A stretch of DNA of 64,000 bases from a virus. The number at the start of each line of letters is the position of its first letter. The first letter of the stretch is position 1. The position numbers and the translations under genes were made by a program. Below the pieces are notes generated by a model that saw nothing but the letters and a program-made list of their open reading frames with translations, had not been told where the DNA came from and did not search any database. Of the stretch, positions 60,996-63,805 are shown one piece after another. The DNA is taken from positions 1-64,000 of the IMG/VR virus record IMGVR_UViG_3300029791_000002. One strand, given 5' to 3'.

Positions 60996-61307
60996 TTAAC
61001 CAACTACCATCCAATCATCAGCCAACATATCTGATTGAGAAGCTAACCATCCATTTACAATATTATTGTTAGCATCTTTCATGCACAGATAAGAACAAAA
61101 TTTAATCATGTTGGTTTCATCTATGTCATAATAATCGTTTACGTATTTTTTAAACGAATCCGGCAATGACTTTACTTTATTAACTATCATATCAGTAGAC
61201 AACCAATCTTCCGGTCGCTGGAATACGAACATTCCTTTACCATTCCATCCTGAACGAGCAATTAACTTACCTTCTTTTACTGCCTCTAAAGCTTCTCCAA
61301 ATTTCAT
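60996..61307 (-). CDS. hypothetical protein (103 aa)
   Basis: ORF. Confidence 0.5.
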   Translation of the reverse strand: MKFGEALEAVKEGKLIARSGWNGKGMFVFQRPEDWLSTDMIVNKVKSLPDSFKKYVNDYYDIDETNMIKFCSYLCMKDANNNIVNGWLASQSDMLADDWMVVG

Positions 61308-61321
61308 AACTATATTTTTTT

Positions 61322-63805
61322 TTATAAATTAAACTCTGCAAAATCTATTTCAGATCCGGTTGACAAATTAATCATTGACTTTTCAAGCTCTTCCATTGGA
61401 ACCGGTTTCACAATACCTCCATTACCAAGAGTCCTTTTATAGAAGTTTATCACCACCTGATCGCTGGTTTTTACCGTCTTAGGAATAGGTTGACGAAGAT
61501 ATAATCCATCAAGAGACTTTACTCTTGAAAGAGCCGTATATAGCTGTCCTGTTTCAAAAGAATTAGATACGTCCATCATAGCCGCATCCAATGTCAGGCC
61601 TTGGGCTTTATGGATCGTGATAGAATAACCTATTTTTATAGGATACTGAATAATAGCTCCTACTACTTCAGATTCTATCTTATATCCGTTTCTTACGTAT
61701 TTTACTTTCTCAAACGAACATGGTGTTATAACAACCTTAGTATGCTCATCATCTTTCGGTTTATCAAGGACTACTTCAATCTCACCCTTTTTTATAGATA
61801 ATACAGTACCAAGAGAGCCATTGAAGTACTCTCCTCCGTTTCTTGTTATCATAACTCTTGATCCTTCTTTCAAGAAAAGAGTTTTTTCAACCGGAGCATC
61901 TTTAGGATAATCACCGTTTATAACAGCTTCTAATTTTCTTAAAGAGCCTGGTAACGATGATATTCTCATTTCGTTAATAGCCGTAGCTTTTGAGTTGGTA
62001 GTTACAATCTCAACATATCCTTGATTATTATCAGACTGAATACATCTGCTGTTTATTGTATCAAATACATCATCATCCATCTGCCCTTCACGCACCTTAT
62101 TAAGGACACTAATAAACTTCTCATCTTTCTGACGGTATATTTTTTCAAAAGAAACCATTTCCATACCAGAAGCCATTAGAGACTTGGAGCTAAAGAAGTA
62201 AGATGTATCGTATATTTCTCTAAAAAAATCCTCCTTAATTACTGGCGGAAGTTGAAATAAATCACCTACCATAATAAGTTTCACGCCGCCAAACGGGTCC
62301 TTGTCTCCTCTTGCATGACGAAGTATATCAGCTACGTTGTCAAGAAGATCAGGGCGAACCATAGAAATCTCGTCTATGATAAGATACTTTATATTCTGTA
62401 AAATCTTTTCCGAACCTCCGTTGAATTTATATTCGCAGTTATCCATAAACGCGCCTTTTCGTATTTCAGGTATATACGGCTGCATTCCTATTCTAAAAAA
62501 TGAATGAATGGTTTGACCACCTGCATTAACAGCAGCAACACCTGTAGGAGCTACAACAACCGCATTTTTTAATGCCGGTATAATACGCTTAAGGAAAGTA
62601 GTATTATGAGTTACAATATAATTATCTGTTATATACAACTCGTCTTTATTTGATACTTTTATACATACGCATTCAGAATCATCTACCTTTTCCACGCTTT
62701 CTATATACCTTGAAACTCTTGCCGGATTAGGAACATATCTTTCTTTTTTTCTTTTTAATGTAAATACATTATCGTACATTTTTATTCTTACGGTATATTC
62801 ATACACGTATTTCTTATCAGGTCTAAAAAGCGTATTTATCTTAGCTATTCCACCTAACGACTGTACAAGATCAACAATGTCTTCAGCCAATCTCTTGCTT
62901 GTAGTAGAATACGTCAATCTATTTCTTTCTTTCGAGCATGTTCCATCGGTGTCCATTAAACCATTTAACAAATGCATTCTCTGATCGATACTGCCAAGTT
63001 TATATTCTTCTGGTATAAATTTATACCCAGACGTAACATTTAGTCCTAAATCCTTTATCCTATTTATAAACCCACCACCTTTTGTATGATTTTTTTGAAT
63101 CACACTGTATTGAGGACATGTGATGGCTGGATGTTCCTTTTTTTTACTCAATAGAAAATCTTCTCCAAGAAATGACTCTACTCTATTTCTTATTTCTACA
63201 TCAGAATCAGAACAAGAAAAAATAGCCATATTACCATTTAAACTCCCATCACCTATAAGAACTCCCAATACATACGGATGTATAGAAAATTTCTTTTCTT
63301 CATATTCTATAGGTCGGCACACTGGAATTTCATATCTTAACGGCTGTTTTTCACCATTTTTTATTTTAACATTCTTCCTGATACCTGTACTTATAATTTC
63401 TTTTAGTGTACTGCATCTCGAAAATGGAGTTTTACCATAATGACTGGATAATCTATATGACCACAAATGCTCTTCATCGCAATATGTAAAATAACCATCA
63501 TTCATAGTTACCTTATATACAGGTCTAATTCCCTGTGGATACACACCCAATACAGTCTGTTGTTTACCATCTGCGCCCATAACTTTATCACCAACCTTTA
63601 TATCCCCCATATTCTTAAAACCATCTGGCGTTAAAATTTTAGCATACAAAGGCTGTGCTTTTCCACTTCCTCCTTTACCGGTTATAAACAGCGGTTTTGG
63701 TGACTTACAAATAGACTTAATAGCCTTTCCCTGGGCGACATTACCTTCGGACATAACTGAACGAAGAACGCACTCCATGATTTTTTTGTCGTAACTTATA
63801 GCCAT
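61322..63805 (-). CDS. Pif1/RecD-like SF1 helicase interrupted by an intein
   Basis: Extein reads ITGKGGSGK|...|TTFLKRIIPALKNAVVVAPTGVAAVNAGGQTIHSF, then LIIDEISMV (Walker B) and MVGDLFQLPPV, all Pif1/RecD motifs. A 352-aa insertion splits the Walker A. Confidence 0.9.
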   Translation of the reverse strand: MAISYDKKIMECVLRSVMSEGNVAQGKAIKSICKSPKPLFITGKGGSGKAQPLYAKILTPDGFKNMGDIKVGDKVMGADGKQQTVLGVYPQGIRPVYKVTMNDGYFTYCDEEHLWSYRLSSHYGKTPFSRCSTLKEIISTGIRKNVKIKNGEKQPLRYEIPVCRPIEYEEKKFSIHPYVLGVLIGDGSLNGNMAIFSCSDSDVEIRNRVESFLGEDFLLSKKKEHPAITCPQYSVIQKNHTKGGGFINRIKDLGLNVTSGYKFIPEEYKLGSIDQRMHLLNGLMDTDGTCSKERNRLTYSTTSKRLAEDIVDLVQSLGGIAKINTLFRPDKKYVYEYTVRIKMYDNVFTLKRKKERYVPNPARVSRYIESVEKVDDSECVCIKVSNKDELYITDNYIVTHNTTFLKRIIPALKNAVVVAPTGVAAVNAGGQTIHSFFRIGMQPYIPEIRKGAFMDNCEYKFNGGSEKILQNIKYLIIDEISMVRPDLLDNVADILRHARGDKDPFGGVKLIMVGDLFQLPPVIKEDFFREIYDTSYFFSSKSLMASGMEMVSFEKIYRQKDEKFISVLNKVREGQMDDDVFDTINSRCIQSDNNQGYVEIVTTNSKATAINEMRISSLPGSLRKLEAVINGDYPKDAPVEKTLFLKEGSRVMITRNGGEYFNGSLGTVLSIKKGEIEVVLDKPKDDEHTKVVITPCSFEKVKYVRNGYKIESEVVGAIIQYPIKIGYSITIHKAQGLTLDAAMMDVSNSFETGQLYTALSRVKSLDGLYLRQPIPKTVKTSDQVVINFYKRTLGNGGIVKPVPMEELEKSMINLSTGSEIDFAEFNL
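62603..63658 (-). mobile_element. intein (residues 50-401) with double-motif LAGLIDADG homing endonuclease, inserted in the helicase P-loop
   Basis: Hint N-block AQPLYAKILTPDGFKNMGDIKVGDKV; LAGLIDADG motifs YVLGVLIGDGS and LLNGLMDTDGT; C-terminal IVTHN followed by +1 Thr. Removal restores GKGGSGKTT. Residue 1 is Ala, not Cys/Ser. Confidence 0.8.

Follow-up and report, generated by a model that had tools for sequence, protein, structure and literature searches.

A predicted class 3 intein with a LAGLIDADG endonuclease in the Walker A motif of a PIF1-like helicase from a human-gut phage

We analyzed a 64,000-nucleotide (nt) stretch of viral DNA (positions 1 to 64,000 of IMG/VR record IMGVR_UViG_3300029791_000002; hereafter the window), in which the gene of a PIF1/RecD-like helicase carries an in-frame insert in its Walker A motif. 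The insert is an intein with a Hint plus LAGLIDADG architecture, for which autocatalytic splicing is predicted. Very probably, it is a class 3 intein with an apparently intact LAGLIDADG endonuclease, residing in the helicase of a csAssE-Sib-like human-gut phage. By homology with the experimentally characterized MP-Be DnaB, Msm DnaBi1, and Mch DnaB1 inteins, the element would splice through a branched intermediate at block F, and its endonuclease is predicted to be active.

Insert boundaries and the intein-less allele

The insert translates into 352 amino acids (aa), AQPLYAKILTPDG…DELYITDNYIVTHN, flanked by GKGGSGK on the N-terminal side and TTFLKRIIP on the C-terminal side, and the insertion point lies in frame within the Walker A loop, between Lys49 and Thr402. 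A tblastn search of the precursor protein against phage genomes led to csAssE-Sib (OR575929.1, human gut, 151 kb), where the match falls into two pieces with a total span of 1425 bases. The flanking 6 kb of the window is ~97% identical to csAssE-Sib except for one insert-sized block, and the annotation of csAssE-Sib gives the corresponding gene product as an ATP-dependent DNA helicase of 475 aa (WOZ57240.1). In-silico splicing, by deletion of residues 50-401, gives GKGGSGKTT and a protein identical to WOZ57240.1 at 475/475 residues. The window and csAssE-Sib genes are separated by an indel of exactly 1056 bp; its junction has no duplicated bases, and its boundaries are unambiguous in both protein and DNA. 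The empty site of the csAssE-Sib type reads GGAAGTGGAAAA↓ACAACGTTCCTT, also given as GGAAGTGGAAAA↓ACAACGTTCC, with the arrow marking the intein position.

The insert at 62603-63658 (residues 50-401), as called in the initial annotation, was thus found to be exact, and the Walker A motif of a Pif1-like helicase is split and restored upon removal as it had proposed. The first residue Ala, the His-Asn end, and the +1 Thr were likewise read correctly, and the intein-less allele that it suggested seeking in related phages is WOZ57240.1 of csAssE-Sib. The possibility that the start was miscalled or the boundary shifted was considered and rejected, as the intein-less orthologue has the same ATG and both junctions are unambiguous. 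Because the empty allele fixes the start and the boundary, residue 1 of the intein is truly Ala.

The exteins differ from the csAssE-Sib gene at 26 of 1428 nt sites, all 26 of them synonymous and none non-synonymous. The GC content of the intein is 32.8% vs. 36.9% in the exteins, a weak signal of foreign origin. It was also observed that the extein differences from csAssE-Sib (L001:6001-7428) are clustered, 17 of the 26 falling between spliced nt 464 and 617, which suggests a recombination patch within the helicase gene, independent of the intein.

Intein fold and splicing blocks

The insert contains the splicing blocks A, B, F, and G (Table 1). Block B carries the sequence C-D-E-E-H-L-W, a DxxH-x-Trp arrangement, and block F the sequence E-C-V-C-I-K-V, while the +1 residue Thr402 doubles as the Walker A Thr. 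The best PDB sequence match of the insert was the gp41-1 intein variant 6riz (C1A, F65W, D107C; 1.9e-13), with further matches to MchDnaB1 (6.8e-10) and Msm DnaBi1 (1e-6). In the HMMER alignments, H113, W115, C381, and T399 align with His63, Trp65, the engineered Cys107, and Thr123 of gp41-1_WCT (6riz), and with His65, Trp67, Cys124, and Thr143 of MchDnaB1 (6rix). The Pfam family Hom_end_hint was matched at 7e-6 with 26.6 bits, under its curated cut-off of 32.1 bits.

The AlphaFold2 model of the insert with 7 and 9 flanking residues, built from 100 homologues, has a mean predicted local distance difference test (pLDDT) score of 93.3 and a predicted template modelling (pTM) score of 0.92. In Foldseek, the whole model matches PI-SceI with an E of 8e-20 and a TMq of 0.71, and further the TliVMA and PhoVMA inteins and I-DmoI; the Hint part matches the MchDnaB1, gp41-1, and Msm DnaBi1 inteins, and Prp8 inteins are also among the hits. 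A profile made from the intein homologues recovers the open reading frame (ORF) of the window at 6e-133, and a search with it through all six frames of the window gave no other copy of this intein family. The in-frame insertion, the restored host protein, blocks A, B, F, and G, and the Hint fold in the AlphaFold2 model and Foldseek matches are all features of an intein. The insert as a non-splicing domain, the alternative that the initial annotation had allowed for, was rejected as the leading interpretation, since the insert has all four blocks and the terminal Asn, and these are conserved.

Splicing class and proposed mechanism

Class 3 inteins are defined by a non-nucleophilic residue 1, by the co-varying Trp B:12, Cys F:4, and Thr G:5 (the WCT triplet), and by Thr or Ser, rarely Cys, at +1, and they are located mainly in the P-loops of helicase-like proteins (PMC2807308, PMC5222942, PMC7664689). 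Cys F:4 is strictly required for class 3 splicing, in which a branched thioester forms at block F and N-cleavage proceeds without the +1 nucleophile (PMC2807308, PMC5222942). Msm DnaBi1 has the same DxxH form of block B (PMC6195587), and a THN ending is prevalent among class 3 inteins (PMC12245125). In the window intein, all of the class 3 sequence features are found, namely Ala50, the triplet formed by W115, C381, and T399, and Thr402 at +1.

Conservation was assessed in the 120 best database homologues and, separately, in 100 aligned homologues. Within the former, His B:10 is kept in 114/115 and Trp B:12 in 113/115, Cys F:4 in 118/119 and Thr G:5 in 117/119, and His G:6 in 119/119 and Asn G:7 in 118/119; the +1 residue is Thr in 108 and Ser in 10, with no Cys. 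Residue 1 is Ala in 93 of the 113 homologues with an N-terminus, the rest having Asp, Glu, Pro, Ser, Cys, or Met. Nearly all 120 are placed at GxxxxGK, directly before a Thr or Ser, in host proteins that include PhoH, AAA_24, DnaC/IstB-like, AAA, terminase, and helicase proteins. The 100 aligned homologues give a similar picture for block A (Ala1 in 81, Gln2 in 89, Pro3 in 86), for His B:10 (100), Trp B:12 (99), and Cys F:4 (100), and for block G (Thr 99, His 100, Asn 100), followed by Thr (90) or Ser (10) at +1.

The initial annotation took Ala1 to imply the less common mechanism, with attack by the +1 nucleophile coming first. This corresponds to the class 2 route of the KlbA type, in which Thr402 would attack the Lys49-Ala50 amide directly and form the block G branch in one step. 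Archaeal KlbA inteins do have Ala at residue 1 (PMC2807308). However, class 2 inteins by definition lack the WCT triplet, and Mja KlbA has Asp at F:4 and a Cys+1 that attacks directly (PMC2807308), whereas the window intein has Cys at F:4, Thr at +1, and the complete W115, C381, and T399 triplet, which is almost invariant in its homologues. No KlbA chain appeared in the PDB sequence search (E<=10) or among the 50 Foldseek matches listed, although class 3 DnaB inteins did, and a Thr hydroxyl acting on an unactivated amide is the chemically least favourable route. Ala1 is the usual residue across a large family of class 3 inteins and is no pointer to class 2. The class 2 route was rejected on its defining feature, and the probability left to it is close to negligible.

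In the class 3 pathway that we propose, the thiol of Cys381 (F:4) would attack the Lys49-Ala50 bond, assisted by His113 and Trp115 of block B, to give the thioester branch at block F. The N-extein would then move to the hydroxyl of Thr402 (+1), forming the usual ester branch at block G. Cyclization of Asn401 would free the intein, and an O-to-N acyl shift would create the Lys49-Thr402 peptide bond and rebuild GKGGSGKTT, so the ATPase site would be complete only after splicing. When phages co-infect, the endonuclease of the freed intein would cleave helicase alleles that lack the intein, and repair would then copy it into them.

A further proposal is that the intein is more than a selfish passenger and acts as a conditional switch, with redox conditions or a metal in the anaerobic gut host possibly gating splicing and hence the ATPase activity of the helicase. 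The class 3 catalytic Cys of Msm DnaBi1 is reversibly trapped in a disulfide under oxidative stress (PMC6195587), and zinc is reported to inhibit the splicing of mycobacterial DnaB reversibly (PMC7360933). Other cysteines lie in the splicing blocks near Cys381 of the window intein, Cys109 at B:6 (in 85% of homologues) and Cys379 at F:2 (48%), while the position of the Msm DnaBi1 redox partner, Cys48, is not conserved. We consider such a switch improbable.

LAGLIDADG homing endonuclease

The two LAGLIDADG motifs have the cores LIGDGS (D186) and LMDTDGT (D287), and both acidic residues are kept. The Pfam families LAGLIDADG_3 (1.4e-9, residues 276-339) and Hom_end (2.5e-5) were both matched over their cut-offs, and insert residues 127-352 match the sequence of PI-SceI at 1.2e-9. 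In the 100 aligned homologues, the G, D, and G of motif 1 are found in 99, 95, and 100, and the D, T, D, and G of motif 2 in 98, 92, 97, and 99. With its two LAGLIDADG helices ending in acidic residues and a fold like those of PI-SceI and I-DmoI, the homing endonuclease of the window intein is apparently intact, as judged from its sequence. The PDB matches, the AlphaFold2 model with its Foldseek matches, and the two motifs with their acidic residues agree with the earlier proposal of an intein with a LAGLIDADG endonuclease.

Alleles in related phages and intein mobility

A search with the intein-less helicase as the query recovered empty alleles of 475 aa with 99% identity (P0121, a cluster of 3864 members) and 88% identity (P0130, a cluster of 1177 members), together with an occupied allele of 827 aa (P0122, a cluster of 923 members). 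Closely related phages have empty as well as occupied alleles in abundance, in keeping with the mobility that had been claimed from the window alone, and the public assemblies contain empty, intact, endonuclease-frameshifted, and endonuclease-degenerate alleles. There are 0 nt differences in the 1056-bp intein among the window, L014, and L015, while their exteins differ at 5-6 sites. The +1/+2 codons are ACT ACT in 4/4 occupied alleles and in 0/3 of the closest empty alleles (ACA ACG). Such junction-linked synonymous codons are consistent with a recent copying-in of the intein with a short co-conversion tract, and simple linkage could also account for them.

A helicase with exteins 70.7% identical to those of the window (P0135) has an intein at the same site that is 49.7% identical, with the Trp, the Cys, and the THN end followed by Thr intact. 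Its motifs read LIGSGDL and LMDSLGG, and the LAGLIDADG Asp is lost from both. Such an allele is what would be expected late in the homing cycle. Splicing appears to be under selection, because P0135 keeps its splicing residues after the endonuclease has decayed.

It is possible, although we think it rather unlikely, that the window intein is a class 3 intein with an inactive endonuclease, inherited vertically or moved by general recombination among co-infecting phages without current homing. Homing endonucleases frequently decay once fixed. Both catalytic Asp residues are absent from P0135, the endonuclease is frameshifted in two sibling genomes (L002 and L003), and the genomes are mosaics of identical and diverged blocks, such that recombination alone could move the intein. 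Against this, the window intein retains both LAGLIDADG motifs along with the remaining near-invariant residues of the endonuclease, it is nucleotide-identical across genomes with differing flanks, and the synonymous changes at the junction follow the occupied alleles.

It was observed that these near-identical sibling genomes (L002:3143-5629 and L003:1-1763; 155.7 kb each, from different samples) carry the same helicase and intein gene with the endonuclease broken. One nucleotide is missing from an A-run at gene nt 661 and four (GAAA) are inserted at nt 872, a net change of +3 with stops in between, and gene calling splits the gene into ORFs of 234 aa and 542 aa. The GAAA insertion is present in both samples, and the 1-nt deletion is checkable in L002 only. 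Endonuclease decay with a dead helicase, a homopolymer assembly error, or a de facto split class 3 intein are possible explanations. The -1 and +4 frameshifts that break the ORF in the same intein, and the fragments among the cluster members, would also suit a splicing-dead or decaying intein in a helicase that is a pseudogene or dispensable. This is very unlikely for the window allele, however, where the precursor ORF is unbroken across 2484 nt and all of the catalytic and near-invariant residues are retained. The identical protein is found on 355 contigs, up to 160 kb, and the same-site intein of the 71%-identical helicase kept its splicing residues after endonuclease decay, which is expected only under selection.

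Several observations weigh against our reading of a splicing class 3 intein with an intact endonuclease. The frameshifted sibling inteins show that broken versions persist. The synonymous-only divergence of the exteins is mostly older than, or independent of, the insertion, and it only weakly supports helicase function of the window allele. Moreover, W, C, and T grafted onto gp41-1 failed alone to yield a working class 3 intein (PMC7664689), and because of this failure the WCT triplet is a signature rather than a proof of mechanism.

The empty lineage of P0130 (L007-L012:501-1928, 88% identical) shares its first 105 gene nt with csAssE-Sib and is strongly diverged in the P-loop at the homing site, with GRAGTGK↓SFFIKR vs. 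GKGGSGK↓TTFLKR (window 63620..63680, 62576..62602). The P0130-type site is GGAACAGGAAAA↓AGTTTTTTCA, the arrow again marking the intein position. Seven of its 58 amino-acid differences fall within 16 residues at the P-loop (post hoc hypergeometric p ≈ 0.001). This lineage may represent an endonuclease-resistant target variant, or a recombination patch.

AAA_24 ATPases of Bacteroides-type phages harbour the inteins most closely related to that of the window, at 52-54% identity. Among cultured phages, the closest relative, with 53% identity, interrupts the P-loop of Bacteroides phage BS-TP3 gp36 (PQ571276.1, L004:2447-4414), a protein labelled "terminase large subunit" that is actually an AAA_24-family ATPase (PF13479, 1e-36). 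These relationships point to an intein family that moves between different P-loop proteins of gut phages.

Comparison with known inteins

The MP-Be DnaB intein of mycobacteriophage Bethlehem (Tori et al. 2010, PMC2807308) is the class 3 prototype and the first described. It shares with the window intein a non-nucleophilic residue 1, Trp B:12, Cys F:4, Thr G:5, the His-Asn end, and Thr+1, as well as the location in the P-loop of a phage helicase-like ATPase, the LAGLIDADG domain within Hint, and a similar length (341 aa in MP-Be vs. 352 aa). However, residue 1 is Pro in MP-Be and Ala in the window intein, and the window host protein is of the superfamily 1B (SF1B) PIF1/RecD-like type instead of DnaB, in an AT-rich human-gut phage instead of an actinophage.

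The Mch and Msm DnaB intein 1 structures (6rix, 6riy, 6bs8) resemble the window intein in sequence, as described above, in the DxxH-x-W block B, Cys F:4, and the THN end, in the Foldseek match to the Hint part, and in the insertion into a helicase P-loop. In contrast, they reside in a bacterial replicative helicase and, at ~140 aa, are mini-inteins that lack an endonuclease. In the case of gp41-1 (6qaz) and its WCT variant 6riz, which match at 1.7e-10 and 1.9e-13, block B is EEHL followed by Trp or Phe and the end is THN; unlike the window intein, gp41-1 is cyanophage-like, naturally split, and class 1 with Cys1 and Asp at F:4, and the WCT graft gave no productive splicing.

PI-SceI (yeast VMA1), the best structural match of the whole model, also has a Hint domain with an inserted LAGLIDADG domain, but it is a class 1 intein (Cys1, Cys+1) that is ~100 aa larger and eukaryotic and resides in a V-ATPase. 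The KlbA intein of Methanocaldococcus jannaschii shares only Ala at position 1, and it differs in being archaeal and without the WCT triplet, with Asp147 at F:4 and Cys+1. By every criterion that sequence can address, the window intein is best described as a canonical, ordinary member of the well-known class 3 family, and it leaves current understanding unchallenged.

Precursor gene and neighbouring features

The precursor matches the Pfam family PIF1 (PF05970) with 90.6 bits over a cut-off of 25.9 (1.5e-25; residues 396-578), and it also matches AAA_30 (2.3e-10) and AAA_19; the NCBIfam RecD2 match (3.8e-16) is under its cut-off. The host is an SF1B helicase of the PIF1/RecD/Dda-like, accessory type, in a gene module of replication and nucleotide metabolism, and the role of replication helicase given to it in the initial annotation is a putative one. 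The exact protein is present in NCBI as UWI29718.1 and DAL92106.1 and is labelled "hypothetical protein" or "Hom-end-associated Hint". The proper name of the gene is intein-containing PIF1-like helicase, with a mature protein of 475 aa.

Table 1. Features of the intein-containing helicase gene in the window (residues numbered in the precursor unless stated otherwise)
Feature	Position	Strand	Basis
Precursor gene (827 aa, PIF1/RecD-like SF1B helicase + intein)	61322..63805	-	ORF list; Pfam PIF1 1.5e-25
Stop codon of the precursor gene	61322..61324	-	
N-extein, residues 1-49	63659..63805	-	Residues 1-49 of the intein-less WOZ57240.1 are identical
Walker A first half GKGGSGK, end of the N-extein	63659..63679	-	Translation
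Intein, residues 50-401, 352 aa, Hint split by LAGLIDADG endonuclease	62603..63658	-	Translation; exact 1056-bp presence/absence vs. OR575929.1
Block A AQPLYAKILTPDG, Ala50 = intein residue 1, no N-terminal nucleophile	63620..63658	-	Translation
Block B GYFTYCDEEHLWSY, Asp110 (B:7), His113 (B:10), Trp115 (B:12)	63455..63496	-	HMMER alignment
LAGLIDADG endonuclease domain, approximate limits, intein residues ~120-300	62759..63301	-	Pfam, PI-SceI match, Foldseek
LAGLIDADG motif 1 PYVLGVLIGDGSL, Asp186 = intein D137 (catalytic position)	63239..63277	-	Translation
LAGLIDADG motif 2 HLLNGLMDTDGTC, Asp287 = intein D238 (catalytic position)	62936..62974	-	Translation
Block F ECVCIKVSNKDELYI, Cys381 (F:4) = proposed initiating nucleophile	62630..62674	-	Alignment to gp41-1_WCT, MchDnaB1
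Cys381 codon	62663..62665	-	
Block G and +1, NYIVTHN↓T: Thr399 (G:5), His400 (G:6), Asn401 (G:7), Thr402 (+1)	62600..62623	-	Translation
C-extein, residues 402-827 (Walker A remainder TT + helicase core)	61325..62602	-	Protein equal to residues 50-475 of the csAssE-Sib helicase

A second, different intein was observed in two close relatives of the window helicase, P0134 (97% identical) and P0137 (76% identical). It begins with Cys1 (CIDGDSPIF…), has its own LAGLIDADG motif, and is located after …SITIHK in the conserved helicase motif HK(A/S)QG, corresponding to window residues 732-734 (HK↓AQG, ~61604..61612). The window is without this second intein and its would-be +1 residue is Ala, while the empty P0130 lineage has HRCQG, with Cys at +1.

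In P0128 (629 aa, on a 2.1-kb contig), the N-terminal 200 residues resemble a type II/IV secretion ATPase (PF00437) and are joined exactly at the Walker A motif (GGGTGSGK↓TTFLKR…) to the helicase C-extein, the junction being the intein homing site. This is most likely a metagenome misassembly through a shared P-loop k-mer.

Directly downstream of the helicase, a 103-aa ORF (window 60996..61307, - strand) matches PF11195, "Thoeris anti-defense 2-like", formerly DUF2829, at 2.5e-24. It is possibly an anti-defence (Tad2-like) gene within the replication module.

Implications

A literature search, limited in extent and no proof of absence, found no description of an intein in a PIF1-type phage helicase. 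With the window intein, the host range of class 3 inteins gains a PIF1/RecD-like helicase from an abundant human-gut phage lineage. The preference of the class 3 family for the P-loop, between GK and the following Thr or Ser, is very strong across unrelated ATPases, including PhoH, AAA_24, DnaC-like proteins, terminases, and helicases. Furthermore, the empty, intact, and frameshifted alleles, the allele with a dead-site endonuclease, and the diverged target, in near-identical genomes from hundreds of metagenomes, form a natural series for tests of the homing cycle and of target resistance.

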